NCBI GenBank assembly: GCA_030704615.1
Contig: CM060733.1
Coordinates: 15,190,001-15,254,000 of the forward strand
Reading direction: 5' to 3'
From: Takakia lepidozioides
Taxonomy: Eukaryota > Plantae > Bryophyta
DNA length: 64,000 bases
Under the pieces are notes generated by a model. It was not told the DNA's origin, searched no databases, and was given only the letters and a program-made list of their open reading frames with translations. Both the position numbers and the translations under genes were made by a program. This document shows positions 37,440 to 62,279 of the stretch, in pieces (positions within the stretch are counted from its first letter, which is position 1; each line of letters begins with the position of its first letter).

Positions 37440-37821
37440 GATCTTTAGTTGGTCTTGAAGGTATGTATCATGGCAGGGAAAGATCCTTGAGACTCACCTT
37501 AAATACTATGCTTGGTTCATGTTCCAGTTTGGGTTTGGGAGGGCCTCTGAATTTCAAGAAGCTTTCCTAATAACGGCAGAGGGACAGCGCCCTGAGAGCA
37601 TGGAGGTAACATAACATTACCTTCATGGAGGTAGCTATAATTTCCGTTCAAAAACAATTGGAAGTCCATCTAGTCTTGGGGCATGTGTGGCTTTCCAGCA
37701 CACTGAGATTGGGAGAACTCTAGAATCATTGTTCTTTCAACGAATGTATGCCATATCTTGCATTGTGATCTTCACCAATGCAAGAACGAACGCATGGCAT
37801 AACTATTCATGCTCTTCGCTC
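37440..37821 (+). mobile_element. Degraded LINE ORF2 3' region, interrupted by the gypsy-DNMT element
   Basis: SWQGKIL-like motif at ~37468; apparent continuation at 48898-49925 ending in a (TTTCA)n tail. Confidence 0.4.
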
Positions 37822-38148
37822 TGTCAAGTTATTTTACCACTAGTGTGAAACTAGCTAGGAAATAGCTAGCTTTTACATATTGACATTTGGGATTGGCCCA
37901 AGTGTCAATCCAGGGGTCAAGGCAGATTTAGGCCCTGGAGTGGTTATCTTCACGGCAAGCGCGGGAGGCTCATCTTTCTCGAGTTGAGCCTCACCGCGCC
38001 TAGCTATGGCGCCGTAGTGTGGATTCCCCATGGCGTGGGGTGCACTTGGCTTGACTTGTATTTGAGTGATGAGGTTATATATGCATGAGTTTATGCTTCA
38101 GCTTTGTGAGCTCGCATGAGCTTGTGCTTGTATTCTTCTTCTTTATCA
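37822..38148 (+). repeat. Terminal repeat A1 (327 bp)
   Basis: Near-identical to 48381-48705 and to the reverse complement of 50956-51273; starts TGTCAAG and ends TTATCA. Confidence 0.95.
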
Positions 38149-38160
38149 CTCGAGAAAGAT
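38148..38160 (+). promoter_or_regulatory. Putative self-priming primer-binding site
   Basis: ACTCGAGAAAGAT directly at the end of A1 is the exact reverse complement of ATCTTTCTCGAGT (37972-37984) inside A1; no TGG-type tRNA PBS is present. Confidence 0.7.
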
Positions 38161-38863
38161 CAGCTCGTATCTATGAGTGCTAGATACGAGTTAGTTGTAG
38201 CACTTGTGGTTTTTGCTTGAGAATGAGGGAAACCAAGTTGTTATGCAAGGAGCACCGTGGAGCTCTTGGTTGTTAGAAGCGGAGGCGATGTGGGTTACGA
38301 GGTGGTAGACCTTGGCATTCGATCTTCAGCTTCAGAGATGAAAGCACCATGCTGCAGGTAATTCCAGAGCACCTTGATGGTTTCAGATTGTGTACATACA
38401 TGAGCAAGCACGATTGGGAAGAGGACCAGTCAAGAGCAGGTTATAGTGGCTTTGGTGGCAAAGCTAAGAACTGGACCTGGGAATGCGAGCTTTCATTGTG
38501 TGAAGGATTGCAAGACCAAGCGAAAGGGCTGATTTGGCTTGGGGCAAATCAATGCACTTTGTGGAGTATGGTGAGATTGGGTTTCAATCTCGAGCTTCAG
38601 CATTGAGAGGGCTCTTGTCATGGCAAGAGCAGGGCTGGAACAGGAGCTAAGAGGTGCGGCAAGGCCATGGAATGTGCACCTAGGGTTTCAGAGCTTGGAA
38701 GAAGAGCTCTTGCACCACAAGAGAAGTGTCTTGTGGCTGGAAATGTAAGCCTTAGGGTTTCAGGAGCTTGGCAAAGGCTATGGAGTGCTTAGTCTTATCT
38801 TAGAGAGCATCAAGGAGCCAAGGAGCCAAGATAGGGGGCTGATATCTCTTGTGTGAAGAGGTT

Positions 38864-39245
38864 GCATGTGTGGAGCATGTATTCAGCTCATTGAAGCTTC
38901 CATCTTCAAGCTTGGAGGGCAAGCAAGGAAGAGGGAAGGGCTGACTTCCCTTATGTGAGGGCAATGTATGTGTGGAGCATGCTATCAGCCTGGTGAAGGC
39001 TTGCACTTTTAGGTGTGGGAGTGCAAGAAAGGAAGGAAGGGGCTGGTTTCCCTGTAGGGCATGTAGAGCATGCTTTCAGCCTGCTGAAACTTGTATTATC
39101 AGGTTTGTGGGTGCAAGAAATGAAGCAAAGGAGCTGATTCTCTTATGGTGAGAGTGGGGCATGTGTGGAGCATGCCTTCAGCCCATTGAGGCTCTTGTTT
39201 TCAAGCCTTAGAGAGCTAGAACGGAAGGTCTAGGGTTGGTTTCCA
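38864..39245 (+). repeat. Four diverged ~100-bp tandem repeats in the element leader
   Basis: Recurring CATGTGTGGAGCATG-(3 nt)-TCAGC-like units, each followed by a GGAAG/GGGCTG-rich stretch, starting at about 38865, 38967, 39060 and 39160. Confidence 0.7.
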
Positions 39246-39684
39246 CTTGGAGTGAAAGAACAGCACTTGTAGGGCCTATGTGAGTTGGGGTTTCAACTTC
39301 AAGCTTGAAGGGAGCGCAACTCTGGAAGCAACAGGTGTAGAGGGCTGGAATAGGCTCTAAGATAGATGCTATGGCCAATGAGAGTGCTTGAATGAGTGCT
39401 CACAAGGGCTGGGAACCAGCAGGGCTTGGTTGTTTGCCATTGAGTTTAGTGGCGTGTTTGGAGAGGCTAAGTGAGAAAGAAGGCTTGGTTTGTGGCAACC
39501 ACCTCATGGCTTAGGGCTACTATGGTGGTGTGTGGGAGCCGAAAGAGCAAGGATACCTTGCTGATTTCCTCACAGCCACCATAGCTCGGTGGAAAGAAGC
39601 CTAGAGTCCAAGAGACACAAACCCTAGCTTGGCGTGGCTAAACCCCTTGGAGAAATGGCTAAACTTCCAGAGCGGCCATGTGTG

Positions 39685-39890
39685 GGGCTGTGACAGGCTG
39701 TGACAGGCTGTGATGGGCTGTGACAGGCGGTGCCCTGTGCCCTGTGGGGCTGGGACGGGCTGTGTCAGGCTGTGACAGGCTGTGCCCAGTGGCCTTTGGG
39801 GCTGTGACGGGCTGTGCGGGGCTGTGACAGGCTGTGCCCATGGCCTTTGGGGCTGTGATGGGCTGTGAGGGGCTGTGACAGGCTGTGACC
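39685..39890 (+). repeat. GGCTGTGACA-type 10-mer minisatellite with a higher-order unit
   Basis: Many GGCTGTGACA/GGCTGTGATG/GGCTGTGACG units; the block GGCTGTGCCCA..TGGCCTTTGG occurs twice. Confidence 0.85.
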
Positions 39891-40626
39891 AGTGAGCTGT
39901 GTGGGCCTGTGCTGGTCTGTGGTGGCCCGTGTTGACCTGTGGACGGCCTGTGCTGACTCGTGGAGGCATTGGTGGACTGCCTAAGGACTGGCATGTGGTC
40001 TGGAAGGCCGAATTTTGAAGCTCGTGGAGGGCGGTTTGAGGAGTATCTTCATGATATTCCCATGGTCATGCAAGTGAGGGTAGAGAGGAGAGGCAGAGTG
40101 TTGGGATGAGAGCATGCTGGGGTTAGGCATTGCTTTAGCTTCTCTTCCTCGTAGTTTCCACCCTCTCATTAGGCCAAGACCTTTCCGTAGGTGGAGGCAA
40201 GAGTCAGTCCGGGTTTGGGCTGGGGTGTCCTTGTAGGAGCAACACCGTGGAGTTGTTTTTGGTGTGGGGGAGTTGTCGATCTGATTTCTTGTGTTTGGAT
40301 CCCCTCCATACCTGCATGCTTGACTGTGCGCCATGCTAGTTTTGTGTGGGCGCTTGTTTTTATAGGTGATTGGTCCGGATTTGATCACCGGCCAGTCCTA
40401 GAGCATGCTGTCGATGGTGAGGCTGGGGTGATGACCAGCCAGACCATCATTGTTTCTCCTGTGGTGAGGTTGGAGGTGATGACCAGCCAACCATAGGAGT
40501 GCTTGCGGTGGATACAGGTACAAGTGTAGGCTATGTTAGGAACTTAGTATTCCAAACCATAAGCCGCAACAGGTTCTCTACCCGGTTACCTTGTGGAGAG
40601 GGGGTTAGGGACATGTTCATGACCGG

Positions 40627-43600
40627 TTGAGTGTCAACACGGAGGTGCCACTAGTTGCTGGGGACAGTGCCGGTTCGAGCACTAGCGATACTAGTGGGTA
40701 CACGAGACGAGGTGTGCGGTTTAGGCCACCTTCACCTCCTGTGTCTTCCACGGAAGGTTCTGATTCGGATTGTGAATCAGGAGGGCTCATACCGGCGGTG
40801 CAAGTCGTTTCTTTGCCATTGTTGTGGGACACAATGGAGGAGATGTATGGAGCTACCAAGGGGCCACGAAGGTACTCTGGGGCGGTGGGCACCATCGAGT
40901 TGGATGATTTTATCCAAGAGTTTGATAGTTGGTGTGATTTGCAGCAAATGCGCAATCCACAACTATTTACGCCTTTCATGGCATGGAAGGGGCTGTTTCA
41001 GCACCTTGAGGGGCCGCCTATGGATGATTACCATGAGTTCAGGCGGGGGCATGAGGTCGAGATCGAGGAGTGGAGGATGTACTGGTCACCCGACTATGTC
41101 TCCATCACTAGGGGCACTAGAGCCACGAGGGCAGTGGCTACACCTGCCGCTGCACCGGCAGCTTCAGCAAGCAGCAGTGGGACTGGTGGTACAGTAGCTA
41201 CGACGCCCACCCAAGCCACCACCGCACCAGCACTAGCACCCGTGCCTGCCTTCAACCCTGTTGTGGAGTTCTTCAAAGAGTTGAGAGGGAACTACCAAGG
41301 GGTGAGGACAGAGAAGTTGCGGAGCTTGCAAGAGTTCCAACGGAAGCCGACCGAGAGCTTGAGGGAGGCTTTCACTCGCATGAGGCGCTTGATAAATGTA
41401 ACCCAAGGGGTTACGGAAGCTCAGGCAGTCCAATTCTGGTATGGGATATTGGACAAGGAGCTGAGGAGAAGGGTGCGGGATGCGACTCTCCTACAAGCGG
41501 CCCAACCCACCTTAGCAAATGTGTTTTTGCTGGCAGAGCGGATAGAGCTCAACATGGTGGAGGAACGAGTGGTCATGGTGGGATTTGCTAAGGAGACACC
41601 ACGGGGTAGTGGTGCTCCTAGCCAACCACTACCTCAACGTACTCAAGGCAACAAGGGGGCTCAGGTGAAGCTCAGGGAAGGGCAGAGAGGACCTCAGATG
41701 CAGGGGTCTCTCCCTTCATTTGCTGGCCAACAACGGGCGGATGTGGTGTGTTGGACATGTGGAGGACCCCATGCCAAGAAGGATTGCCCAGAGGGAGGCA
41801 AAGGGCCGGCACATGCACAGCCTGCACAGTTGCAGTGTGGGCATTGTGGCAAGCACGGGCATGGAGAGGCCCAGTGTTATGGTTTGCATCCTGAGTTGCG
41901 CCCAGGCCAGTTCCAAGGGAACAATGGTGGCCGGGGGCGAGGTGGAGCAGCCCAAAGAGGACGAGGTGGCCAGCCACGAGGTGCACGCCAAGGGCAAGCT
42001 CAACGTGGCCAAGGACGCGGAGGTCAGGGTGTTGACCAAGGCATGGCCAACCGGCTTCAGCAGCTAGAGCAGAGGCTCGCTGCCATGGCTACAGCTCAGG
42101 CGGTACCGGCTCTAAGGCCGGATGGTCCCCCTCCTGCTCCTGAGGGAGGAGATATGGGAGGCATGGGATTCATGTGTGGAGCAGCACTACCACTAGTGCA
42201 GGTAGAGTCTGCTGCAGCCGTGACTCGAGGAGCAGCACGAGTTCCTGAGCCACGAGGTGCAGAGGTGCAGTTGGATCCACAGCGTGGGGAGGCAAGCCGT
42301 CAGGCTAGGCTTCCTCAGTCATTCACATTGGCGGAGACAGTGTCGACGCCATCCATGGCACCTAGTTCTCGCCCGACTGTTACCGAGGCGGAGGTTACTA
42401 TGCCATTGGGGAGAGCTACACGGGTAGCACCACTACCTAGTGTTGCCAAGGCTACGGCAGCTAGTGTGCTGTTAGGAGCGGCCACATCTGTGTGCCAGGC
42501 TCCATTGTTCTCGGCTACCATGATTGCGACGCCGGGGATAAGACCAGCTGAGGTGTTCAGGCTGGCAGCTACACTCTGTGAGAGTGGGGAGGTTACTTCA
42601 TCTTCTGCGGAGATAGTGGGAGGTGTAGTGCCGGAGGGATCCTCGGATTTGAGGGTCAAGACTGCCACGGCGGCGCCATGGCAAGCTGCAGCTGCCAGGT
42701 TGATGGAGCTGCCAGCTAGGCCAGCCATTGAGCGCGCCATGGTGACACCTGGAGTTGTCATGTTAGACAACCAGGATGGCATTTTCTGTTTGAGTGGACC
42801 GGCAGGCAAGAGGTACCGGCCACTGCGAGTCTTGTTGGACTCGGGAGCTCAGCCACTGATGCTGGGCAGAGCTGCTATTGCAGGCTTGGGCCTCACGGAG
42901 GCGGATATGGAGCCTTGTCCTTTCCAGATACAGACGTCTTTGGGAGGATCGGAGCAGGCTCGGGGCATGACACGGCGTGAGTTGGCTATCAGACTACGGC
43001 CGGATCACCCTACAGATGGCTCAGTGATGCGAGCCAAGGCCATTGTGACAGATGTAGTCGCATACGATGTCCTGGTTGGTGGGGCAGTGTTGTACCCCAT
43101 GGGCTTCACCCTGGATTTTTGGGAGGAATCAGCTTCATATAGGTCTGCATGGCAGTCAGGGGAGGGCCGGCGTGTGCAGCTCCCTGTGACGTTCATAGGA
43201 GGAGTTGCGGTTGCCCAGCGAGGCAAGATGCCGACACTAGCAGCATTCACAACGGCAGTGAGTTGGCCTAGAGAGTTGCTTGAGGGCAATGCTCATTCAG
43301 AGGATGTACCACCTCCGGGAGAGCAGGATGACATGTATGGTATGACGGAGTTGCCTACCATGGTTGCTCAGACTCCATTGTGGGGCACGAGCAAGGATTT
43401 GCAGCGGGTTGCTGATCGACGGGTGCAACAAGCCTGGGTGGAGGCTTTTGTACCGTCAGGAGAGGAGGAGAGTGTGGGGATTGCACCAGGACCACCTCAA
43501 TTGTCTCCATTGGACACCACACCTATTGTGTGGCAGTATCCGGATGAAGGCATTTGTCTTCTGGACTTGTTTGGCGGGATCAGCACCGGATTGGCTGCTG

Positions 43601-44798
43601 TGTTACAAGCAGGTGTACGAGTTCGGCGTTACCTGTATGTGGAGAGGGATGAGACTGCACGACGCGTTTCACTTCGCCATGTTGCTCAGTTGGTGCAGCG
43701 GTAGCCTGAGTTGTTGTCGGTGTCTGCAATTCGTGGATATCAACAGGCCTTGCCAGCAGACATTTCGTTGCTGGGGGCGCAGGATTTGGAGCGGGTTGGC
43801 TCCATTGATCTGGTAGTGGCAGGTTGGCCTGCCAAGGGCATTCATCAGCCGGGCATGGCAATGGATTGCGAGACTCGAGGTCGGGTCTGTTTTGGGAGAT
43901 GGTGCGGGTTTTGCGCCACTTGCAGCTTCATCAAGCTGTATCTCCAGCATACATCTTGGAGAATGTGCCACTGATGGGCGATTCTCGGGCCAGGGTGATG
44001 GCCAGTGTGCATCAAGTCCGGTCGTGGCTTGGGTCAGCAGTGTTGCTAGATGCAGCTACAGTGGGGTCACGAGCTCATCGTCCACGGCTATGGTGGACTA
44101 ACTTGATGCCACCCGCACTGCTCAAGCGTGCATTTGATGGGGTGCAGCGGCCAGCGCATCTCACAGTGGATAACATTCTGGACACAGGGAGGCAGTCTCA
44201 ACGTGTGAGACACGATGACCGTTCGCCTTTGGCAGTGGTCAACAAGGTGGGTCAACCACGAGCAGCATTACCTACACTGCTCAGCTTCCCAGGATCGCAT
44301 GCTTTCCGGGATAGTGGACCTGGCCTCCTGTGGGATGCTCAGTTGCAGCAGTTAGTGGAGCCTAATGTTGACGAGCGTGAGCGGGCAATGGGTTTTACCA
44401 CTGGTACCACGGCGGTGTCGTCTCTTTCTGAGGCATCACGTCGTCAAGTGTTGGGGCAAGCAATGGATCTCAATTGCTTGACCTGGATTATCAGCTTGGC
44501 TCTAGCTGAGCAACGCAGAGTGCGGAATACACTTCCCTCAATGGTCTCTCTGCCTACCGAGACGGTACAGGCAGTGAGTGGGGGCGAGCATATGAGGACC
44601 ACGGGGTGCATGCATCCATGGCACACGTGGGAGGTGCTCGAGGTTCAGAGGGAGTTGGCAGCCAAGGCGGCTGTGATGGATGAGGTTGGGGATTCTTCTC
44701 GGGTTGAGGAGGTCCTCAAGGATGAGATGATGGGGCAGGATGAGGCCTTGTCATTGACTGAGCAGGCAGGGAGTACTGCTCAAGAGGTTGCAGCATAG
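40627..44798 (+). CDS. Gag-protease-DNA cytosine methyltransferase polyprotein (one premature TAG at 43702, one 1-bp frameshift at ~43830)
   Basis: Zn knuckles CWTCGGPHAKKDC and CGHCGKHGHGEAQC, RGG tract, protease VLLDSGAQ (~42830). C5-MTase motifs I LDLFGGI (43561), II YVERD, IV DLVVAGWP[C]QG, VI ILENV (~43959), VIII HRPRLWW, IX ERERAMGF and X LGQAM (~44451). Confidence 0.9.
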
Positions 44799-47700
44799 CA
44801 ACCACGGGACGCGTCCTCTACCTCTAAGCCCACTGGACTTAAGGTTGTAGTTACGGAGGACAATTGGGAGCCTGACATTGGACCCATTGTCACCGGAGGA
44901 GAGAGACGACGTATACGGCGATTCCTGAGGGCTTACAAGAATTGCTTTGCCTTCAGTTTGAAGGACTTGGGAGCACTGAAGGGTCAAGAGATCCGTATTG
45001 AGTTGGCCACTGACACGCCAATCTTTCGGAGACCCTATAGATACAGTGACATGGAGAGGTCTTTGATTCAGATGAGGACTCAAGATCTCTGGGAGGCAGG
45101 TTTGGTGGAGCTCTCTGGTGGAGAGTATGCTTCAGCCACAGTGATGCCAGCCAAGAAGGATGTCTATGGCAATTGGACGGAGAGACGTATGTGCGGTGAT
45201 TACCGGCCTGTAAATCGTCAGACCAAGTCCGATAAGTATGCCATGCCAACACCAGAGGAGATCTTTGATGCTATCGGGCATGCTAAGGCCTTTAGCACTT
45301 TGGATTTACGATCCGGATATCACCAGTTGCCAATCAAGGAGGCGGACAAGCAAAGACGGCATTCTGGGGGATCAATGAGCACGGCAAGGATTGCCTATAT
45401 CAGTGGCGGTTCTTACCATTTGGGCTTAAGAATGCTCCTGCAGAGTTTCAGAGAGTCATGGATAGGATTCTAGCAGGGGTGGACTTTGCTCGGTGCTACA
45501 TAGATGACATCATCATCTTTAGTGTTACGATGGAGGAGCATGAGAGATACCTTCAGGTGGTATTGGAGCGCTTGAGAGCGCACAGATTGAAGTTGCATCC
45601 GGGGAAGTGCAAGTTTTTCCACAACCAGATTGAGTATCTGGGTCACATGATATATCCTGGAGGATTGGGGGTACAGCAGACTAAGGTAGAGGCCATTGCA
45701 CAAATTCCACGCCCCATGGATGTGAGCCGAGTTCGAGCTTTCATGGGGTTGGCAAACTATTATAGACGGTTTGTCAAGGGATTTAGTACCATTGCAAAGG
45801 CTCTAACCAAGCTGACCAAGGTGGACCAGGAGTGGCAGTGGGAAGATGAGCAGGAACGAGCTTTTCAAGAGCTCAAGGCGAGGTTGACCTCGGCGCCTAT
45901 CTTGAGACGACCTATCAGGGGGCGTCCCTTTCAGCTGCATACGGATTGGAGCATGCTAGGGCTTGGAGCAGTGCTCACACAGGTGGATGATGAGGGAAGA
46001 GAGTTCGTAGTAGCTTATGCTAGCCGCTCGAACAACGCTGCAGAGGCTAAGTACAGCTCATATGAGGGAGAGTGCTTAGCTGCAGTGTGGGCCGTGGCAC
46101 ACTTCAGGTGCTATCTATACGGCAATCTTTTCACCCTTGTCACGGATCACCAGCCACTCAAGTGGTTGATGGAGTCAGACAAGCTTACGGGGAAGCTTGC
46201 ACGGTGGGCACTTATACTCCAGGAGTATGACTTTCAGGTTGTGCATCGACCGGGTTTGGTCAATCGAGATGCGGATGGATTGAGTCGCAATCCATGCATG
46301 AGCCAGCAGGATGACACTGGAGCTCGGTGGCATGGTGAGACGGACGAGGAGATGGTGCCGGGATGGCACGCATCTGCATTTTTGTGTATCTTGGCATCGG
46401 GAGGTCAGATTGGACCTACAACAGGGATGACTGTAGAGGAGTGTCTGAGGACCCTGAGGCTAGTGATGAGCTAGGTGGTGCCGAGATATACATGAGGATT
46501 CGGCTGTGTTGGATTACCTCCGCACGGGAGACACGGCAGCCATTGTGACTGCCAGGGAGAGGGATCGGATCCTGCAACGAGCCAAGAGGTTCAAGTGGGA
46601 GGGGATACACCTACTTCGAGTGTGGGAGGATGGTCGGGTGAGGATTGTGCCTCACCCCACACAGCGTGCACGGTTAGTGCGGCATGCCCTTGAGGAGGAT
46701 TGGGGCATTTTGGAGTGCGACGCACTCACAGTTTACTGCAGGGGCAGTATTGGTGGCGTGGTATGCATACAGAGGTGCAACAGTTCGTGGCTAGGTGCAT
46801 GGTGTGTGACAGGGTGCGTGCTTCATTCAACGCCCCTACACCACAGTTGCATCCTTTACCAATCATGGGATTGGGCTACAGGTGGAGTCTTGACTTCGCA
46901 GGACCGTTGCCACTGACTATGCGCCACCACAGATATGTGTTGGTGATGGTGGAGCACTTCTCCAAGTGGATTGAGTTGGTTCCATTGCCTGACAAGGCTA
47001 GTGAGGGGGCTGCGTATGCATTCTTGGATCGTGTGCTTAGCCGATTTGGTGCTCCAGCTGAGGTACTCACGGACCAAGGGAGAGAGTTTTTGGGGGAGTT
47101 TCAGGCTTTGTGTGATAAAGCCTTGATAGACCACCGCACCCACTTCTCGGGATCATCCTGAGGCCGATGGCTTAGCAGAGAGAGTTGTTCAGACGGTGAA
47201 GAGGGGTTTGCGCAAGTATGGCTTGCAGAAGGGACACCTAGGAGATTGGGATCTTCAGGTTCCTTGGTTAGCCATGGGCTACAGGTTCAGCAAACAAGCA
47301 TCACTTGCCTCCTTCTCACCATATTTCCTTCTCTTTGGCCGAGAGCCGGATTTGCCTGCAGCCATTCGTAGGGACACTGCTCAAGTCCTTAACCTTGACG
47401 ATCCGGACGTGTGGGTACGTGCATGTGATCAGCGTGCAGAGTTGTTCAAGAAAGTCATGCCCATGGCTTTTGAGAACCTTGCCATTGCACAGCACCGTGA
47501 TACGTTGAGGTATGCCACTATACGTGGTGGAGGATATCGTCCTGGGGTTCGGAGGTTTAGCCCTGGTGACTATGTTTATTTGCAGCAGACTGCTCCTACG
47601 ACTCTGGATGTTACTGCAGGGCGTGTTATTCTGAGGGTTCGAGAGGTGTTGCCCTCAGGGGTCCTGATCTTAGAGGGTCGGGATGGCATGACTTGAAAGA

Positions 47701-47932
47701 CCATGTGCGTAATTGTGCGCCATGTCACCTTCCCAATGTCGATGGCAGAGTTGACCCAAACTTGGCAGTGGTACCTGCAGGTTTGAGGTGCATGCTCTGT
47801 GGGTCTGCCAAAGGGGCAGCCACCATGCTGGTGTGTGATCGGTGCTCAAGGGGTTGGCATATGGGATGCTTGACACCACCTCTTGAGAAGGTTCCTGACG
47901 GAGATTGGTTGTGTCCACACTGCTTGGGATAG
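44799..47932 (+). CDS. Pol: RT-RNaseH-integrase-PHD finger (several 1-bp indels)
   Basis: [67 protein letters not shown]-terminal C4HC3 PHD CMLC...CDRC..GWHMGC...WLCPHC (47789-47923). Confidence 0.92.
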
Positions 47933-48192
47933 TGACAATGGACATGACTGGAGGCAGCTAACAAGACATGGGAGGCCAAGCTCATAGGAGTCAATACATG
48001 AGATCCCAAGCTCAAGTTCACAGGTTGCAAGACGGCGACTAACGATGGGGCAACTCTTGCACCCGGCCTCTTGATCTATCGAGTTTGAGTGTAGTAGGGA
48101 TAGTGGTGGAGGACTTAGTGAGGCTATGGTCACTATCACATCTTGTGGCTACCTGGACTTAGAGGGACCTAAGCACCAGCTAGGGGGGCGAT

Positions 48193-48897
48193 TGTGTGGA
48201 CTAGTGACTGCCATAGTGGGGCGGAGTGGCAGCCTAGTGACTGACTAGTTGTAGCCTAGTGGTTGGACTAGTGGCTGGACTAGTGGTAGACTAGTGGTAT
48301 ACTAGTGTGTGGTGTGCACATGTGTTGTGTGGTTTTGGACAGCGATGTAGTTGTGTAGCGATATGTATGCGCACGACAGCTGTCAAGTTATTTTACCACT
48401 AGTGTGAAACTAGCTAGGAAATAGCTAGCTTTTACATATTGACATTTGGGATTGGCCCAAGTGTCAATCCAGGGGTCAAGGCAGATTTAGGCCCTGGAGT
48501 GGTTATCTTCACGGCAAGCGGGGAGGCTCATCTTTCTCGAGTTGAGCCTCACCGCGCCTAGCTATGGCGCCGTAGTGTGGATTCCCATGGCGTGGGGTGC
48601 ACTTGGCTTGACTTGTATTTGAGTGATGAGGTTATATATGCATGAGTTTATGCTTCAGCTTTGTGAGCTCGCATGAGCTTGTGCTTGTATTCTTCTTCTT
48701 TATCATTGTGTGGACTAGTGACTGCCATAGTGGGCAGCGGAGTGGCAGCCTAGTGACTGACTAGTTGTAGCCTAGTGGTTGGACTAGTGGCTGGACTAGT
48801 GGTAGACTAGTGGTATACTAGTGTGTGGTGTGCACATGTGTTGTGTGGTTTTGGACAGCGATGTAGTTGTGTAGCGATATGTATGCGCGACACGACA
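48193..48897 (+). repeat. Right-end repeat block B1 (48193-48378) - GC - A2 (48381-48705) - T - B2 (48707-48897)
   Basis: B1 and B2 are near-identical and rich in tandem CTAGTGG units; A2 matches A1; B1 starts just after the PPT AGGGGGG. Confidence 0.95.
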
Positions 48898-49925: not shown

Positions 49926-52358
49926 GTTCATGGCATATCTTTCATCGTTTGTGCATTTCTAATGCATGATTAGTTCTCTTGTATGGCATTACTAGTCGAC
50001 TCACTACAAACACCAAAACTCCAAAGCATGAATCGCTATGAATGATTGTTCAAGTAATTTCGAGCACTTCATGGAAAGTAGTAAAGCAGTGGTTGCGCCA
50101 ATTTCCACAGTCGCAATTGCCACTGGGCATGTAGCACTGCAAGTTATGTGGTCTACTACCACATGGCGCCCCGGGCCCGTGGCCATGTGGCAGCAGTGCT
50201 GCTCGTCGTGGCGCCGCCACGTCGACGTCCACATCGTCGTCCACGTCCGCGTCCATGTGTCACCGCGCTTCGGTGAGTCGGTGCACTCATCCGGAGGGAA
50301 AAGTCAAAGTCAGCCCAAAAGGTCAGACACACGGGCTTGGCAACAGCCCAGCCTCCCGTTTGATTACATGCGGTGGAGCCCCCCTTGAAGTAATCCTCAG
50401 GAACCACGTGGTTCTTCAGCATTAATCGCATTAATCGCTGAGCAGTTGTTCGCGCGTCTTCGTCCTTTACCACTCCAATCATTGGATGTCCAACCCAACT
50501 ACCACGTCTGTTGTAACTAGTCGTTTGTAACTTCCAGTCGATCCCGGTTTTTTGACTTTTACGACTCAAAATGAGTCGTTACTCCAGTGGTAACTGACAC
50601 AAATGCTTCTAGTGTAATGTCTTAATGTACCATGTACAGTTCTAAGTTAGTCCATCCTGCAAATGTGGGCTCTTGGCTCTTGTTATGATTTGGTATCTTT
50701 CCTAATGTTTACAAGGTCTTGGGGAGAGTCAGCTTGGTCTTCGCAAGCTGCGTTTCAATCTCTGCCATGTCGTGCGCATACATATCGCTACACAACTACA
50801 TCGCTGTCCAAAACCACACAACAATGTGCACACCACACACTAGTATACCACTAGTCCACCACTAGTCCAACCACTAGTCCAACCACTAGGCTACAACTAG
50901 TCAGTCACTAGGCTGCCACTATGCTGCCCACTATGGCAGTCACTAGTCCACACAATGATAAAGAAGAAGAATACAAGCACGAGCACAAAAATCTGAAGCA
51001 TAAACTCATGCATATATAACCTCATCACTCAAATACAAGTCAAGCCAAGTGCACCCCACGCCATGGGGAATCCACACTATGGCGCCATTAGCTAGGCGCG
51101 GTGAGGCTCAACTCGAGAAAAGATGAGCCTCTTGCGCTTGCCGTGAAGATAATTACTCCAGGGCCTAAATCGCCTTGACCCTGGATTGACACTTGGGCCA
51201 ATCCCAAAATGTCAATATGTAAAAGCTAGTATTTCCTAGCTAGTTTCACACTAGTGGTTAAAATAACTTAACAGCTATCGTACGCATACATATCGCTACA
51301 ACAACTACATCGCTGTCCAAAACCACACAACACATGTGCACCAACACACTAGTATACCACTAGTCCACCACTAGTCCAACCACTAGGCTACAACTAGTCA
51401 GTCACTAGGCTGCCACTATGCTGCCCACTATGGCAGTCACTAGTCCACACAATCGCCCCCCTAGCTGGTGCTTAGGTCCCTCTAATCCAGGTAGCCACAA
51501 GATGTGATAGTGACCATAGCCTCACTAAGTCCTCCACCACTATCCCTACTACACTCAAACTCGATAGATCAAGAGGCGGGTGCAAGAGTTGCCCCATCGT
51601 TAGTCGCCGTCTTGCAACCTGTGAACTTGAGCTTGGGATCTCATGTATTGACTCCTATGAGCTTGGCCTCCATGTCTTGTTAGCTGCCTCAGTCATATCC
51701 ACTGCCACTATCCCAAGCAGTGTGGACACAACCAATCTCTGTCAAGAACCTCTCAAGAGGTGGTGTCAAGCATCCCATATGCCAACCCCTTGAAATCGAT
51801 CACACACCAGCATGGTGGCTGCCCCTTTGCAGACCCACAGAGCATGCACCTCAAACCTGCAGGTACCACGCCAAGTTTAGGTCAACTCTGCCATCGACAT
51901 TGGGAAGGTGACATGGCGCACAATTACGCACATGATCCTTCTAAGTCATGCCATCCCGACCCTCCAAGATCAGGACCCCTGAGGGCAACACCTCTCGAAC
52001 CCTCAGAATAACACGCCCTGCAGTAACATCCAGAGTCGTAGGAGTAGTCTGCTGCAAAATAAACATTAGTCACCAGGGCTAAAACCTACCGAACCCAGGA
52101 CGACGTCCTCCACCACGCATAGTGGCACAACCTCAACGTATCATGGTGCTGTGCAATGGCAAAGTTCTCAAAAGCCATGGGCATGACTTTCTTGAACAAC
52201 TATGCACGCTGATCACATGCACGTACCCACACGTCTGGATCGTCAAGGTTAAGGACTGAGCAGTGTCCCTACGAATGGCTACAGGCAAATCCGGCTCTCG
52301 GCCAAAAAAGGAAATATGGTGAGAATGAGGCAAGTGATGCTTGTTTGCTGAACCTGTA

Positions 52359-55300
52359 TGTCGCGGCCCTTTGCCTTGAGGGCAGGGGGTTTGGGACACA
52401 TGAGGGGCTGCCCCTGTGGTGGGGGCAGCGGCAGCGATAGGTACGGGGGGCTGAAGCACCCTTGAGTGCCCAAGGCACTCAAGGAGGCGGAGGCGCTCAC
52501 TAGGTGGAGCCCCGCACACCGGGTTGCGGTGGGGGTGGCTCCACAAGGGGTGGTGGTAGCTTAGCGGGACTTAGTGGGGGGTGGCATAGGACTCACCATG
52601 AGGGCGGAGACCTCGTGGTGGGAGTCGTGGGGAGTCTTGGGACTCATCACGGTCCATAGGGGCCGTGATGAGTGGGCCAAGACTCACCGCGACTCATCAC
52701 CGGGAGTCGAGGGTTTTCGTGGTGGTTCGCCATAAAATGGCATGGCTGGTTATGAAACCCCCGCGGACAGCTACAGTATATAAGGGAGTAGTAACCCCGA
52801 GAACGGTGCAAGCCCGTTGGTGACCAAAAACTAGTGAGTAAGCGAGCGAGCCGGAAAGCGACCAAAGAGTGGGGAGCTGTTCCGGACTGCCATCTACCAA
52901 AGGGAATTCTCCTAGTCCCAAAGAGGTGGAGGGTTTAGAAGGAAGCGAAGGGGGACCGTTATGTCCCGGTGAGCAGCCGAAGCTCCAAGTTGGCCCGGGC
53001 GGCCAGGTTGGGAGTCAGGCGCGCGCATCAAAGCGAGTAACTATGACTTGAAGGGGAGCTTACCGAAGTGAGGTGCGCGACATTTGGTATCAGAGCTTAG
53101 AGTTCAGTACGCGATCGTCCTTGGGATTGGCCTCATCATGGGGTCGGGCAAGCCAAAGCGAAAGCGGAACGGCCCAAAAGATGATGATCCTGGTGAGCCC
53201 GATGGGGGCGACGTGTCACCGAGGCGGCCGTTTGAGGAAGCGATGAATGTTTCCGAAAACGAGGCCGCTCAAGAGCGGAGGAATCCGAGGAGTCGGAGCC
53301 CGAGGAATCCTTGAGAGCTCCGACAAACCAAGAGATGCCTCCCATGCCGGCAGCCTTTTGGGAAGGGTTGTTGGCGCAGTTTGGCGGGACGTTGAAAGAC
53401 GTGTTGAAGGCGGCTAATGCCACTTCCACTAAGGCAAAGTTTAAGGTGAAGCCTAAGGAACCCGACACCTTCGAGGGCGTTCGAAATCGGAAGGCACTCA
53501 ACACCTGGCTCTTGGAGCTAGAGCAGTACTTCCGGGCGGCCAAGTTGAGTGACGAGGATCGGGTGGAAGTGGCTCCCACCTATTTGAGGGGCTATGCTCA
53601 ACAATGGTGGCAGAAACGCCTTCACGACCGAGGCCCAAGCCCGGAAACCTTGAACTGGAGTGGGTTCAAGGAATTGATGAAGAGACAGTTTGTGCCCCTC
53701 AACGCGTCCTGGCTTGCCCGGGACAAGATGAGGAATTTGAAGCAAACAGATGACATTCGGGGGTATGTCCAGGCTTTCAATGTGCTGTTGCTCGAAGTCG
53801 CGGACATGGCAGAACCAGAAATGGTCTTCAACTTTGTGGCGGGACTGGCCCCATGGGCCAGGCGGAAGTTGGAGGAGAAGCCACCCAAGACTTTGAACGA
53901 GGCAATTGAGAGGGCTGAATGTTTCTCGGATGTCCCTAGGGGTGAAAGACAAGGCCGTACGGAGCTGAACCACAAGAAGATTCGGCGGGAAGGTGACTCA
54001 TTCTGACCGGAAAAGAAGTGGGATAGGCCACGCGGCGATAATGGCACGTGGAAATCGAAGGGAGGGCCTTCGTACGTCAAGGCGGCACCCGGTGCTCCAA
54101 AAGGAAAAGCGGGTGGAGCGGCTTATGGCGGACAGAAGGCGACCTTTGATGGAGCGTGTTTTCAATTGCGGGGAGCCCGGGCACATGGCCAAGAAGTGCA
54201 CGAAGCCCGGCAATTGAACATGACTCGGGCGACCACGGAGCTGTCGGAAGATACCATCAGTCGCTTGGTGGAAGCGGTGGTCGCCAGGACTTGCAAGGTA
54301 GGCAAATTTTCTTGTGAGTTGTATCAGGAAACTGGCGCCTTACGAAAAGGGAGTCAGTTATTGTTCGTGGATGGGATAATATCCGGAACTAATGTGTCGT
54401 TGTTGGTGGACACAGGAGCGTCGCACTCCTTCATGACGCCGGCGGCGGCGCGAAAGTTGGGACTCCCGACAAGTGACGTGGGGGCCTCTATTGAGGTGCG
54501 CTCTGCCAAAGGAGAACCTCAGTTGGCGACAAGGTTGGCGTTTGATGTTCCTCTTCAACTGGGGAGTTGGGAGGGACGTGAGAACTTCACTATCTGCGAG
54601 ATCGATGGAGTGGATCTCATTTTGGGAATGACCTTTTTGAGCAAATCCGGAGCGGTCATAGATGGCCGCAAGAGAGTAGTCACGCTGCCATGTGGGAATG
54701 GTGGCGAGGTTTTACGAGTGTCGGAAACGCCCAAATCCGTGGGAGGGCGAATAAACCTTCTATCAGCAAAGGAGTGGGCCGTGGAGGAGACACACGAGTC
54801 CCAGTTTTTGCTTTACATTAGAGAAGTGAAAGGAGAAGGCGATGGGGAGCCGAGCCCAGATTGGATCAAGGGGATTTTGGAGAAATACCAGGATGTGATG
54901 CCGGAGGATTTACCAAGCGGCTTGCCACCGCGAAGAGGAGTTGACCACAAGATTGAGGTGATACCGGGATCGGAACCGCCTGCCAAGGCGCCCTACCGGT
55001 TGAGCCACAAAGAGTTGGTCGAGCTGAAGACTCAGCTCAAGGATCTAATGTCAAAGGGGTACATCCGGCCGAGTAAGTCACCTTACGGAGCCCCGGTGCT
55101 ATTTGCAGACAAGAAGGATGGGACGCTGCGGATGTGTGTCGATTACAGGGCTCTGAATAAGGTGACTATCAAAAACCGGTACCCTTTGCCAAGGATCGAC
55201 GACCTCTTCGATCGGTTGGCAGGAGCGAAGTATTTCAGCCGGATCGACTTGCGCTCCGGCTATCACCAAATTCGGGTGGCGGAAGGAGATGAGGAGAAGA

Positions 55301-58300
55301 CCGCGTGCAGGACAAGGTATGGTTCATATGAGTTCTTGGTGATGCCTTTTGGGCTCACCAATGCACCAGCGACATTTAGCACGCTGATGAACAGCCTTTT
55401 CCAGAGTGGTTGGATGACTTTGTGATCGTGTACATCGACGACATCTTGGTGTACTCGAAAACAAAGGAGGAGCACCTGGAGCACCTCAAAAGGGTGTTCC
55501 AAAAATTGCGAGAAGGGAAGCTGTATGCCAAAGCTTCAAAGTGCGAATTCGGGGTCACAAAAGTGGAGTTTTTGGGGCATGTGATTACACAGGATGGGAT
55601 CAAAATGGATGACAGAAAGGTGAGGGCGATCTTGGACTGGGAGCCTCCGACTTCGGTCCCGGGAGTGCGATCCTTCCTAGGACTCGCCTCCTATTACCGG
55701 AATATGTGAGAAATTTCGCCAAGATCGCGGGGCCGCTGTCGGACCTTCTGTGTAAATCCAAAGTCTGGGTATGGAACACATTTTGTGGCCAAGCTTTTGC
55801 TGAATTGAAGCAGCGGATGACGGAAGCTCCAGTCTTGAAAATCCCGGAGTTCGATCGCCCGTTTGAGATTCATACAGATGCATCGGACTTCGCGATTGGG
55901 GGTGTACTTATGCAAGATGGACGTCCAGTGGCTTACGAAAGTAAGAAACTGAATGAAGTGGAGCGACGGTGGCCGACGCACGAAAAAGAGATGAAGGCGG
56001 TGGTGCATTGCCTTGAGCTCTGGCGCCACTATGTTGGTTCCAACCCAGTGAAGGTGTTCACGGACAATGTCACGGTGAAGTATTTTGCCACGCAGCCCAA
56101 GTTGTCCCCAAAACAACTTAGGTGGCAAGATACTTTGGCAGTGTTCGACGTGGATATCCAGTACAAACCGGGACGGGACAATGTGGTGGCCGATGCTTTA
56201 AGTAGAAAGCAACAGCTCTTGTTGGTGTACAAGGGCGAGACGGCACTCCAAAGGAAGATCCGGAAGGCTTGCCGGAAGGATGAGCTGGCGAAGTCCGTGA
56301 TGCAGGACTTGAGGATGGGGGTTAAATCGCAGTTCCACTTGCAAAATGGACTGCTCCGGTATAAGCAAAAGCGTCTCTACGTGCCGAAGGGAGGGATCAG
56401 GGATAGTCTCTTGAGAGAATGCCATGATAGCCCGCTTGCGGGCCACGGTGGAGCCAAGCGCACTGCGGCACTCTTGAAGAAAGAGTATTTCTGGCCCAAA
56501 CTGAGGGAGGAGGCAGAGGAGTATGTCAAAACATGCACCACATGCCAACAAAACCGGAGCGAGTACAAAAAGCAAGCGGGGCTATTACAACCCTTGCCGA
56601 TTCCAGAGGGGACTTGGGAAAGCGTCTCGATGGATTTCATGACTGCTATGCCGCTGTCAAAAGGATTCGATGCAATCATGGTGGTGGTAGATAGGTTCAG
56701 TAAAATGGGCCATTTCATCCCCACCAAGGAGACGGCAACGGCGCAGGAGACAGGGCGACTTTACTTCACCACGTCTTAAAGCATCATGGAGTCCCGAAGG
56801 ATATTGTCTCGGATCGCGATCCAAAGTTTACGAGTAAATTCTGGAGAGCACTTTGGAAGAAGATGGGGACGAGGCTGAAGATGAGCACCGCCTTCCGACC
56901 TACGACGACGGCCAAACGGAAAGAGTGAATTCCGTAGTGAAGCAATTCTTGCGGAATTACGTGTCGGCAGACCAATCAGACTGGATGGAACACTTAGACG
57001 CGGCAGAGTTCTGTTATAATAACACAGAACACTCCGCAACGGGAGTTTCCCCTTTCGTGTTGGTCTATGGAAAAGCACCTCTGGTGCCGACAAGTTGGGC
57101 CGCCCAGGACGTTGAGGAACCGGGCAGTAGCGGCGGTACTGGAAGAACGCGAGCGTTTGTTGAAGCTCGCAAAGTACAATATTGCCAAAGCTAGGAAACG
57201 GTATGAAAGGCAGGCGAATCGGAAGCGGAGGGAAGTGAAGTTTGAGGCAGGCACAGAGGTCTGGTTGAACATCAAGAATTTCCGACTACCTCCGGAAGTG
57301 AGTCCGAAGTTCGTGCCTCCGTATGCGGGACCCTTTCGCATTCGAAAGGTTATGAATGAGGATGTGTATGAATTGGAGCTGCCGGCAAACAGCAAGGTGC
57401 ACCCAGTATTCCATGTCTCCTTTTTGAAGCCTTACTTCAAAGATGAAGCGCGTCCGAATCGGCATCAAGTGTTGCGTCTGCCACCTATGCTGTTGGATCA
57501 TGAAAATGAACCTGAGTACGAGGTGGAGGCAATACTTAAGTCGAGGAGGTTCAGGAACCAAGAAACGGAGTATCTCGTCAAATGGAAGGGCTATCATCAT
57601 GTGGAGGCATCTTGGGTGCGTGCCTCAGAAATGGGAAACGCATCCGAGGCGGTTGCAGCTTTCGAAGGGCGACCTCAAAAGCGGAAGAAGCGTTGATGGG
57701 GACATCAACCTTGGAGCGTGGGGGAGGAAATGCATGCTTAGCCCGGTTTAGCTAGCTCAGGAATCCGATTGCAAAAACTTGTATTGTACAAAAATTTGTT
57801 ATAAAGGAAAAGGGTTCCAAATATTGTGCGTCCTATTGTGTTTGGAATGGTGATGCATGGTGTGGTTGGCTAGTGTGTAGAATGCATGCTAGCTTACAAA
57901 AGTGGGAGAGGTAAATTGGGTAATCGTGTGTTTGCGCAGTGCCGAAATCGGGTGACTCCCATCCAAGGGGCAAGGAAACTTGCGCCTTCTTTGGGAGTTC
58001 ACGTGCTAGTGCGCACCTGGCGCGTGCGCGTACTATAACTGCGCTACCGAGGGGTTGCCTTGTAGTGCGGGCTAACGCGGAAGCTACGTGCTTCCGTTCA
58101 CGTACTATAATCGTGTAACCTCGGGACGAAGTCGTAGTGCGGCTTCGACGTGTTCCCGTACCTCAGGCCAGCATTCCAAGGCGGACCCAATTGTAGTGAT
58201 TGGGGCGCACGGTTGGTTCAAGGTTATCTTCCTAGTCAAAAGAGGGTTCCAGGTGAACCCTTGCTCAAGGTGATGCCAAAAGCGGCATCATGAGCGATCG

Positions 58301-59331
58301 CAAGCAATGTTGTTGCAGTAAGGCGATTCGATCCTCGGGGAGGATCATTCCTTGGCCTTGAAGTAGGCCAAGAAGAGTGCACTGGGAGGAGCTGGAGAGG
58401 CTCCACCCTTGGCCGGGACTTGGAGGAAGTCGGCCGAACTAGCTAGTGGAGAGTAGAGTCAAGTGTGGGGTTTGGTTCCTTACCATGGGACGCCATGGTA
58501 CAGAAACAAACTCCTTGATGTGGGACGCCACAACTTGGATGTTCGTTTCTACAAAATGGACAAGTCGATGAGGACATCGACTCCCTGTTGGTAGGGGTGT
58601 GTGTCGCGGCCCTTTGCCTTGAGGGCAGGGGGTTTGGGACACATGAGGGGCTGCCCCTGTGGTGGGGGCAGCGGCAGCGATAGGTACGGGGGGCTGAAGC
58701 ACCCTTGAGTGCCCAAGGCACTCAAGGAGGCAGAGGCGCTCACTAGGTGGAGCCCCGCACACCGGGTTGCGGTGGGGGTAGCTCCACAAGGGGTGGTGGT
58801 AGCTTAGCGGGACTTAGTGGGGGTGGCATAGGACTCACCATGAGGGCGGAGACCTCGTGGTGGGAGTCGTGGGGAGTCTTGGGACTCATCACGGTCCATA
58901 GGGGCCGTGATGAGTGGGCCAAGACTCACCGCGACTCATCACCGGGAGTCGAGGGTTTTCGTGGTGGTTCACCATAAAATGGCATGGCTGGTTATGAAAC
59001 CCCCGCGGACAGCTACAGAAGTATATATAAGGGAGTAGTAACCCCGAGAACGGTGCAAGCCCGTTGGTGACCAAAAACTAGTGAGTAAGCGAGCGAGCCG
59101 GAAAGCGACCAAAGAGTGGGGAGCTGTTCCGGACTGCCATCTACCAAAGGGAATTCTCCTAGTCCCAAAGAGGTGGAGGGTTTAGAAGGAAGCGAAGGGG
59201 GGGACCGTTATGTCCCGGTGAGCAGCCGAAGCTCCAAGTTGGCCCGGGCGGCCAGGTTGGGAGTCAGGCGCGCGCATCAAAGCGAGTAACTATGACTTGA
59301 AGGGGAGCTTACCGGAGTGAGGTGCGCGACA
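52359..59331 (+). mobile_element. Full-length chromovirus (Galadriel-like Ty3/gypsy) nested in copy 2
   Basis: LTRs 52359-53082 and 58602-59331 (TGTCGCG...CGCGACA), TSD CTGTA (52354-52358 and 59332-59336), tRNA-iMet PBS TGGTATCAGAGC (53085-53096), purine-rich PPT ~58590-58601. Confidence 0.96.
53138..57696 (+). CDS. Chromovirus gag-pol with C-terminal chromodomain (frameshifted)
   Basis: Gag [13 protein letters not shown] knuckle, [58 protein letters not shown] and AGPF motif, chromodomain [18 protein letters not shown], basic tail KRKKR. Confidence 0.92.
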
Positions 59332-62279
59332 CTGTAGCCCATGGCTAACCAAGGAACCTGAAGATCCCAATCTCCTAGGTGTCCCTTCTGCAAGCCATAC
59401 TTGCGCAAACCCCTCTTCACCGTCTGAACAACTCTCTCTACTAAGCCATCGGCCTCAGGATGATCCCGAGAAGTGGTGCGGTGGTCTATCAAGGCTTTAT
59501 CACACAAAGCCTGAAACTCCCCCAAGAACTCTCTTCCTTGATCCGTGAGTACCTCAGCTGGAGCACCAAATCGGCTAAGCACACGATCCAAGAATGCATA
59601 CGCAGCCCCCTCACTAGCCTTGTCAGGCAATGGAACCAACTCAATCCACTTGGAGAAGTGCTCCACCATCACCAACACATATCTGTGGTGGCGCATAGTC
59701 AGTGGCAACGGTCCTGCGAAGTCAAGACTCCACCTGTAGCCCAATCCCATGATTGGTAAAAGATGCAACTGTGGTGTAGGGGTGTTGAATGAAGCACGCA
59801 CCGTGTCACACACCATGCACCTAGCCACGAACTGTTGCACCTCTGTATGCATACCACGCCACCAATACTGCCCTTGCAGTAAACTGTGAGTGTGTCGCAC
59901 TCCAAAATGCCCCAACTCATCATGGGCATGCCGCACTAACCGTGCACGCTGTGTGGGATGAGGCACAATCCTCACCCGACCATCCTCCCACACTCGAAGT
60001 AGGTGTATTCCCTCTCACTTGAACCTCTTGGCTCGTTGCAGGATCCGATCCCTTTCCCTGGCAGTCACAGTGGCTGCCGTGTCTCCCGTGCGGAGGTAGT
60101 CCAACACAGCCGAATCCTCATGTATATCTCTGGCACCACCTGGCTCATCACTAGCCTCAGGGTCCTCAGACACTCCGTCTACAGTCACCTCTGTTGTAGG
60201 TCCAACCTGACCTCCCGATGCCAAGATACACAAAAATGCAGATGCGTGCCATCCCGGCACCATCTCCTTGTCCGTCTCACCATGCCACCGAGCTCCAGTG
60301 TCATCCTGCTGGCTCATGCATGGATTGCGACTCAATCCATCCGTATCCCGATTGACCAAACCCGGTCGATGCATAACCTGAAAGTCATACTCCTGGAGTA
60401 TGAGTGCCCACCGTGCAAGCTTCCCCGTAAGCTTGTCTGACTCCATCAACCACTTGAGTGGCTGGTGATCCGTGACAAGGGTGAAAAGATTGCCGTATAG
60501 ATAGCACCTGAAGTGTGTCACGGCCCACACTGCAGCTAAGCACTCTCCCTCATATGAGCTGTACTTAGCCTCTGCAGCGTTGTTCGAGCGGCTAGCATAA
60601 GACACTACGAACTCTCTTCCCTCATCATCCACCTGTGTGAGCACCGCTCCAAGCCCCAGCATGCTCCAATCCGTATGCAGCTGAAAGGGACGCCCCCTGA
60701 TAGGTCGTCTCAGGATAGGCGCCGAGGTCAACCTCGCCTTGAGCTCTTGAAAAGCTCGTTCCTGCTCATCACTGCCACTCCTGGTCCATCTTGGTCAGTT
60801 TGATTAGAGCCTTTGCAATGGTACTAAATCCCTTGACAAACCGTCTATAATAGTTTGCCAACCCCATGAAAGCTCGAACTCGGCTCACATCCGTGGGGCG
60901 TGGAATTTGTGCAATGGCCTCTACCTTAGTTTGCTGTACCCCCAATCCTCCAGGATATATCATGTGACCCAGATACTCAATCTGGTTGAGGAAAAACTTG
61001 CACTTCCTCGGATGCAACTTCAATCCGTGCGCTCTCAAGCGCTCCAATACCACCTGAAGGTGTCTCTCATGCTTCTCCATCGTAACACTAAAGATGATGA
61101 TGTCATCTATGTAGCACCGAGCAAAGTCCACCCCTGCTAGAATCCTATCCATGACTCTTTGAAACTCTGCAGGAGCATTCTTAAGCCCAAATGGTAAGAA
61201 CCGCCACTGATATAGGCAATCCTTGCCGTGCTCATTGATCCCCCAGAATGTTGTCTTCTGCTTGTCCGCCTCCTTGATTGGCAACTGGTGATATCCGGAT
61301 CGTAAATCCAAAGTGCTAAAGACCTTAGCATGCTCGATGGCATCAAAGATCTCCTCTGGTGTTGGCATGGCATACTTATCGGACTTGATCTGACGATTTA
61401 CAGGCCGGTAATCACCGCACATACGTCTCTCCGTCCAATTGCCATAGACATCCTTCTTGGCTGGCATCATTGTGGCTGAAGCATACTCTCCACCAGAGAG
61501 CTCCACCAAACATGCCTCCCAGAGATCTTGAGTCCTCATCTGAATCAAAGACCTCTCCATGTCACTGTATCTATAGGGTCTCCGAAAGATTGGCGTGTCA
61601 GTGGCTAACTCAATACGGATCTCTTGACCCTTCAGTGCTGTTAGTCCTTCAAACTGAAGGCAAAACAATTCCTGTAAGCCCTTAGGAACCGCCGTATACG
61701 TCGTCTCTCTCCTCCGGTGACAATGGGTCCAATGTCAGGCTCCCAATTGTCCTCCGTAACTGCAACCTTAAGTCCAGTGGGCTTAGAGGTAGAGGACGCG
61801 TCCAGTGGTTGCTATGTTGCAACCTCTTGAGCAATACTCCCTACCTGCTCAGTCAGTGACAAGGCCTCATCCTGCCCCATCATCTCATCCTCAAAAACTT
61901 CCTCCACCCGAGAAAAATCCCCAACCTCATCTTTCATCGCCACCTTGGCTGCCAACTCCCTTTGAACCTCGAGCACCTCCCACGTGTGCCATGGATGCAT
62001 GCACCCCGTGGTCCTCACATGCTCGCCCCCACTCACTGCCTATACCGTCTCGGTAGGCAGAGAGACCATCGAGGGAAGTGTACTCCGCACTCTGCGTTGC
62101 TCAGCCATAGCCAAGCTGATAATCCAGGTCAAGCAATTGAGATCCATTGCTTGCCCCAACACTTGACGATGTGATGCCTCAAAAAGAGACGACACCGCCG
62201 TGGTACCAGTGGTAAAACTATTGTTGGTATCATTTCTATGCTATCAAAAGCCTCGCTCTTTGCTCTTGCTATTCTGGTA

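Follow-up and report, generated by a model that had tools for sequence, protein, structure and literature searches.

How does a retroelement whose leading repeat is followed by no tRNA-type primer site begin reverse transcription, and are the ends that reverse transcription would make the ones that the element inserts? Both questions are raised by an 11-kb Ty3/gypsy element in the window, the whole 64-kb stretch of DNA analyzed here. A sequence-only reading of the locus had proposed Tf1-like self-priming without noticing that the repeat departs from an ordinary LTR: the element is arranged as A-internal-B-A-B (Table 1). In the standard LTR model, the polypurine tract and the primer site fix the ends of the cDNA, and integrase uses exactly those ends. 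Self-priming is an already known mechanism and the ordinary part of this case; its notable part is that a conserved gypsy clade has inserted ends that are permuted relative to the ends of reverse transcription.

Organization of the element and its neighbors

The frames of the coding part are broken. In order, they specify Gag and protease (both weak matches), a cytosine methyltransferase, reverse transcriptase (RT), RNase H, an rve integrase and a PHD finger. The features that place the element in Ty3/gypsy are the Gag-PR-RT-RH-integrase order, the Ty3-like RT, and a DDE integrase together with short target duplications, which are found in relatives, none being visible at the window copy. The integrase has an H2C2 zinc finger and an rve core (E 2.5e-14), in which the D-D-E residues were located by eye. 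No chromodomain match was obtained, and a PHD finger stands at the integrase C terminus in the window and in the related locus L026. No tyrosine recombinase was among the Pfam matches of the ORFs covered (49 of the 51 window ORFs of at least 70 aa, 21 of 37 in locus L056 and 16 of 40 in L026). The best match of the methyltransferase among solved structures is DNMT3A, a weak one (E 0.001), and PF00145 was also found in L056 and L026. The ORF upstream of it terminates in a stretch that resembles DNMT motif I.

Table 1. Features of the element and of its second copy, in window coordinates
Feature	Positions	Strand	Basis or remark
Repeat A1, left end, TGTC...ATCA, 327 bp	37822..38148	+	99.4% identical to A2
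Hairpin, 14 bp with one bulge, spanning the predicted start	37959..37999	+	Folding
Predicted self-primer (predicted first 12 nt of the transcript)	37972..37983	+	Observed complementarity
Primer-binding site CTCGAGAAAGAT, not tRNA-type	38149..38160	+	Complementarity
Hairpin, 12 bp, directly 3′ of the primer site	38162..38192	+	Folding
Leader, 2.4 kb	38193..40608	+	No Pfam or Rfam match
ORF with weak Gag and protease matches	40609..43704	+	Pfam
Cytosine methyltransferase domain	43809..44798	+	PF00145, E 2.6e-7; frame broken
Reverse transcriptase and RNase H, two frames	44799..46474	+	Closest solved structure Ty3 RT, E 2e-53
Integrase, several frames, then PHD finger	46470..47932	+	PHD E 1.7e-11
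Polypurine tract AGGGGGGCGA	48182..48191	+	Directly before B1, not before A2
Repeat B1, 187 bp	48192..48378	+	Repeat comparison
Internal palindrome GACA-GC-TGTC at the B1/A2 joint	48375..48384	+	Conserved in relatives
Repeat A2	48381..48705	+	Repeat comparison
Repeat B2, right end	48706..48897	+	Matches B up to 48888; last bases differ
Second family copy, 94-97% identical	50768..62218	-	B-A-B at 50768-51453, internal part up to 62218

The B repeat is built of ACTAGT-containing units. The leader is G-rich and holds degenerate tandem arrays at 38835-39244 and 39666-39921, with units of about 100 bp and 10/52 bp; an Rfam search over 37700-40700 gave no match. Summed contig depth over A was about twice that over the leader, depth not being a copy number.

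The second family copy is interrupted at 52359-59331 by another gypsy element, on the forward strand and of conventional build, with LTRs of about 730 bp that are 98% alike, the primer site TGGTATCAGAGC and a 5-bp duplication, CTGTA. We take this site to be of the tRNA-Met type. Inverted pieces of the LTR of the conventional element lie at 62284-63205. Elsewhere in the window, a short repeat that opens with GAAAT units occurs twice in direct and once in inverted orientation (4369-4408, 21986-22025 and 49857-49917) and possibly marks the termini of a further mobile element. An open frame of 415 codons with no Pfam match occupies 4682-5929 (+).

Complementarity between repeat A and the primer site

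As the sequence-only reading had stated, ACTCGAGAAAGAT at 38148-38160 and the segment at 37972-37984 are perfect reverse complements of each other, and a match of at least 13 nt arose by chance in 1 of 20,000 dinucleotide-resampled repeats. A38148 is the terminal base of repeat A1 (37822-38148, TG...CA), and the primer site proper is therefore the 12 nt at 38149-38160, pairing with 37972-37983. The claim that the repeat is followed by no TGG-type primer site was borne out, and ARAGORN found no tRNA gene within the 64-kb window. A C/A initiator-like step is present at 37971/37972. On the model of Tf1 and by comparison with relatives, the transcript would start at the A of this step and its first 12 nt would be released as primer by a cleavage predicted between 37983 and 37984.

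We scanned metagenome contigs for relatives and analyzed the best 80 of 504 confirmed loci, among which three further families were recognized, F2, F3 and F4, with RT identities to the window element of 70-77%, 48-52% and 50-60%, respectively. All three have the A...B-A-B layout. In a quick tree, built without reference clades, the window element, F2, F4 and Marchantia proteins formed one clade, with F3 apart. A search of viral contigs found no relative.

Each family has a primer/site pair of its own, and the two members of each pair are complementary: ATCTTTCTCGAG/CTCGAGAAAGAT in the window family, AGTTCTTTGAG/CTCAAAGAACT in F2, AGTTTTTCTAGA/TCTAGAAAAACT in F3 and ACTTTTGGTGATT/AATCACCAAAAGT in F4. 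The covariation between the two segments that the earlier reading had named as a check is thus found in four families. Locus L017, of F2, has the site TTCGAAGAACT and carries AGTTCTTCGAAT in its own A2. The covariation is argued from the paired sequences, since the primers were out of register when the four promoter regions were aligned with MAFFT. In 12 of 14 distinct left ends, the best 12-nt pairing fell at the homologous place, with 10 to 12 Watson-Crick pairs; in the other two (L017 and L076), the left primer copy is decayed. The primer segment of the window family contains a 6-nt palindrome, CTCGAG, and F4 lacks it.

The spacing of promoter elements points to the same start. A TATA box lies 31, 32 and 29 nt upstream of the first paired base in F2, F3 and F4, respectively, and in all three this base is a purine that follows a pyrimidine. 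A canonical TATA is lacking in the window family, which has TTATCTT at -28 and a TATATA downstream of the predicted start, at about 38077.

RNA folding agreed with these features. When the RNA was folded from 37972, its first 13 bases paired with the primer site (z -7.4), and a slightly longer stretch retained nine of those 13 pairs; the predicted 5′ end of the transcript folded onto the primer site in six of six copies. When folding began at 37822, a hairpin at 37959-37999 formed in place of the primer/site pairing. The sequence-only reading had described the complementary segment as the loop of a hairpin extending over 37965-37992. The hairpin exists, and its loop does overlap the segment; it is larger than described, however, with 14 bp and one bulge, and the loop proper is 37973-37984, A37972 belonging to the stem. 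A long-range pseudoknot between loop and primer site, the alternative offered at the time, is disfavored by these folds: with the upstream arm present, the hairpin forms and leaves the primer site unpaired with it, the program being one that cannot predict pseudoknots.

The left arm of the hairpin lies upstream of 37972, and the hairpin would therefore form only in the 3′ copy of the RNA. There it likely hides the second copy of the primer sequence and prevents it from competing for the site. A hairpin spanning the predicted start is present in the window family, F2 and F4. No upstream arm was seen by eye in F3, three copies of which lacked the search motif used for folding, and the hairpin is therefore not universal. 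Two further observations concern folding of this region. The closing pair A38173/T38181 of the second hairpin reads G/C in most of the contig depth, with both changes together in one X12 contig. The part of A upstream of the predicted start (37822-37940) folds as three adjacent hairpins, and the complete A repeat gave a fold with z -9.6.

The pairing might instead be structural, serving dimerization or a contact between loop and site, in an element with the same split layout whose transcript starts elsewhere and is primed by a host RNA. The lack of a canonical TATA at -30 in the window family would fit such a role, as would the location of the segment within a hairpin loop and its palindrome. 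We nevertheless consider it very unlikely. In four families whose letters are unrelated, the pairing begins with the base that directly follows A, and in three of them it lies at TATA distance; the palindrome is absent in F4, and the hairpin competes with the pairing instead of supporting it. Covariation, TATA spacing and transcript folding together make Tf1-like self-priming, with a predicted start at 37972, very probable for this element.

Inserted ends and repeat joints

From the positions of the tract and of the primer site, it follows that the copied repeat is B-GC-A. Two equal LTRs of this kind, running from tract to primer site, are not what is found at the ends of inserted copies. The copies run from the start of A to the end of B, two points that flank GACA-GC-TGTC, so that their ends correspond to the internal B/A joint. 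This palindrome consists of two abutted integrase-end motifs with a 2-bp spacer; against host DNA, A starts with TGTCA and B ends with GACA. B preceded A in none of 14 left ends. Other insertions begin at the same base as A1, as seen from loose contig ends at 37822, and in the window's species 33 and 29 contigs (runs X1 and X2 of one sample) leave B at 48378 into unrelated flanks. Among the loose ends listed (103 and 317 further ones exist), what follows A is always either the primer site or B. In F3, the ends defined by tract and site lack TG/CA altogether (ATAC.../...CAAT).

Target duplications were assessed in the nine insertions for which both flanks were available. A 4-bp duplication was exact in four of them (L026, L064, L075 and L043), and at least three of the four positions agreed in eight (adding L056, L076, L041 and L037+L038), with p values of 6e-8 and 1e-9; L060 matched at one of four. 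At the window copy, no duplication was seen in the assembly. One X1 contig has the B end plus GCT before the right flank of this copy, which fits three letters of its left flank, GCTC. Duplicate assemblies of one insertion were counted once. We left out of the counts L020, which is the insertion of L019 and diverges after B plus three letters, and L003, in which no primer site follows A. The duplication tally also omits L017/L018, whose B2 is cut short, and both it and the joint tally omit F4, whose borders are unsure and whose solo A-B in L041 matches at two of four positions.

Could the element be an ordinary LTR retrotransposon, its LTR being B-A or A-B, with ends rearranged either once it was inserted or through misassembly? 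Such a reading would fit the window copy, whose frames are broken and which lacks a target duplication, and the differing assembly of one insertion in two contigs (L019 and L020). Against this, the same layout recurs in both window copies and in 20 insertions of three other families, target duplications flank the A start and the B end, and many independent flanks adjoin B at a single base. We regard such rearrangement as highly improbable, and consider it very probable that internal att sites define the inserted ends.

The two joints within the repeats differ in how often they are altered. The B1/A2 palindrome kept its length in 18 of 19 insertions. The A2/B2 joint corresponded exactly to the site-defined end followed by the tract-defined start in 12 of 19; it was off by 1 or 2 bases in four others (L019, L045, L061 and L076) and showed a large loss or a fold-back in three (L075, L078 and L029). 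Altered joints thus numbered seven of 19 for A2/B2 and one of 19 for B1/A2 (Fisher p 0.042), a modest value from a tally made by eye on short-read assemblies.

The B copies of an element resemble each other. Among variants present in two copies, six of 14 private ones were common to B1 and B2 of the same element, 4.8% being expected (p 2.5e-5); three of the six came from one element. In the first window copy, B1 and B2 are identical over 186 aligned bases, and pairs across the two copies are 96.6-97.9% identical. In F3, B2 ranked its own B1 first in four of 10 elements and above the mean of the others in all 10. These comparisons suggest that B2 is likely copied from its own B1, a signal that gene conversion could also give.

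It is also conceivable that self-priming operates as proposed and that the A-B right end is templated by RNA or made by RT, through copying as in DIRS, PAT or Ngaro elements or an end-to-end jump; integrase would then find the A-start and B-end termini already made and would only trim the GC. The repeat layout is that described for PAT, Ngaro and VIPER elements, 12 of 19 A2/B2 joints are precise, and a templated end would account for the missing mirror product discussed below. It would also suit one case, L012 (3300-3602), in which the end of the PHD coding sequence runs into A only a few bases from where the primer is predicted to be cleaved: the tract and B1 are missing, and part of A is retained together with B2. 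Priming at 38149, however, begins at the A end and would not copy a B2 present in the RNA. The A2/B2 joint is moreover the primer-defined end joined exactly to the tract-defined start in all four families, and private variants are common to B1 and B2. We therefore consider a templated right end unlikely, and the end-joining reading set out in the next section is preferred.

Of 33 right ends, 20 read B-GC-A, 12 B alone, and one was odd. The B-only ends could come from annealed B copies, a 1-LTR circle, later recombination between B1 and B2, or assembly collapse. Locus L029 (3361-3878) has A2, then primer-site sequence, then an inverted copy of the upstream part of A that ends in TGACA against host DNA. 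Such a structure is what would be left if a plus strand folded back after copying the self-primer; in this single case, the fold-back end was apparently used as the right insertion end.

A candidate route of insertion and related systems

These features can be assembled into a chain of five steps. Transcription would start at 37972. RNA bases 1-12 would then pair with 38149-38160 and be cut off as primer by RNase H; the pairing is observed and conserved with changed letters, and release by RNase H is modeled on Tf1. Transfer of the minus strand to A2, with the plus strand primed at the tract that precedes B1, would next yield a cDNA of the form B-GC-A/internal/B-GC-A, as expected from the positions of both priming sites. 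Integrase may then cut after CA on each strand of the left palindrome, drop the GC and insert with a 4-bp stagger; the inserted ends and the duplication are observed, and the cut is the presumed step between them. Finally, the primer-defined A end would be joined to the tract-defined B start, either by host break repair after insertion or in a 2-LTR circle before it. End joining would give B-A-B, and annealing of the two B copies the B-only form. The linear-first route is slightly favored over the circle-first route because it explains both forms and the damaged joints.

The main gap of the model concerns its one-sidedness. The mirror product A-B-A/internal/B was seen in none of 14 left ends, and it would be expected if either junction could be cut; the model therefore needs an extra assumption. 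One speculation is that the left junction alone is used because it may be the first to become double-stranded. With this gap, we regard the whole chain of self-priming, linear cDNA, integrase cut at the left palindrome and rejoined ends as reasonably probable.

The clade appears to break the standard link between RT ends and integrase ends, across families about 50% apart in RT. More broadly, and with moderate confidence, we propose that an old green-plant clade of Ty3/gypsy has uncoupled the ends that RT makes from those that integrase uses: it would prime itself, normally cut an internal att-att palindrome and rely on host repair or a 2-LTR circle for completion. If so, it would be a natural and obligate example of junction integration, a route formerly proposed for retroviruses, with an LTR integrase that normally acts at an internal or a circle junction and with insertion tied to host repair pathways, and it would suggest how split direct repeats can arise without a recombinase. 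LTR finders that require a target duplication beside both LTRs would probably miss such elements or misplace their bounds.

At the circle junctions of IS3 and IS911, the substrate of a DDE enzyme is likewise a pair of abutted ends separated by a short spacer. The integrases of foamy virus and HIV-1 cleave palindromic LTR-LTR junctions, according to the parts of PMC2884000 consulted. The likeness to the present palindrome lies in the DDE enzyme and in the two abutted ends with a short spacer; in retroviruses, the junction is made from cDNA ends and represents a side route, whereas here it is inherited inside the repeat and apparently serves the normal route.

Self-priming has reportedly been proposed for TOC1, a split-repeat element of Chlamydomonas. 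It was shown for Tf1 and proposed for Tj1, and a prediction in PMC6317226 assigns it to 12% of plant elements, chiefly Tcn1 and TAR. Our element resembles Tf1/Tf2/Tj1, Tf1/sushi and Tcn1 (PMC4600332, PMC6317226, PMC2864245; relevant sections) in having no tRNA site and a site complementary to that segment of its own repeat which is predicted to begin the RNA. All of those are chromoviruses with ordinary twin LTRs, and in the Tcn1 copy described, a chromodomain is present and a 5-bp duplication adjoins the LTRs. Ours, in contrast, combines a PHD and a DNMT domain with split repeats and 4-bp duplications. Membership in the Tf1/sushi/Tcn1 chromoviruses was considered and rejected on architecture, given the PHD finger, the lack of a chromodomain match and the split repeats.

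Split direct repeats of the form A1...B1-A2-B2 are shared with PAT, Ngaro, VIPER and TATE (PMC6681497 and PMC7192593, in the parts consulted). Those are tyrosine-recombinase elements, whereas a DDE integrase, a Ty3-like RT, a polypurine tract and 4-bp duplications are found here, with no recombinase match.

Among the closest described systems is KnitGypsy-Dnmt3 of Klebsormidium nitens (de Mendoza et al. 2018, PMC5890265), in which a Gypsy Pol carries a Dnmt3-like domain. The legend of its Fig. 4c presents the repeats as those of DIRS elements, which the paper gives as A-coding-B-A-B, and the domains as typical of Gypsy. The window element likewise has a Dnmt3-like domain in Pol and A-coding-B-A-B repeats. 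The consulted portions of the paper are silent on any primer site, target duplication, internal palindrome or mechanism of KnitGypsy-Dnmt3; "PHD" does not occur in the main text, nor "PBS" or "priming" in three supplements. A 2026 preprint mentions a streptophyte Gypsy-DNMT3 in passing, in the part consulted. In the mostly open-access literature covered, we found no description of how this clade is primed, of its target duplications or of cleavage at its junctions; subscription papers or Repbase reports may hold one.

The protein family extends beyond KnitGypsy-Dnmt3 to liverworts and mosses: the named relatives of the window proteins are from Calypogeia, Marchantia, Riccia, Sphagnum and Closterium, a range which suggests that the host is probably a land plant without seeds, and no K. 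nitens protein was named among the 120 of 1071 and 37 of 37 protein matches listed. The Marchantia relatives make the model testable in existing genomes and 5′-end data. In Marchantia polymorpha, related Gag-to-DNMT proteins annotated as hypothetical genes form a cluster of 18 members, and four of the 15 members listed (P0123 and P0166-P0179) carry Mp_Vg (V chromosome) names.
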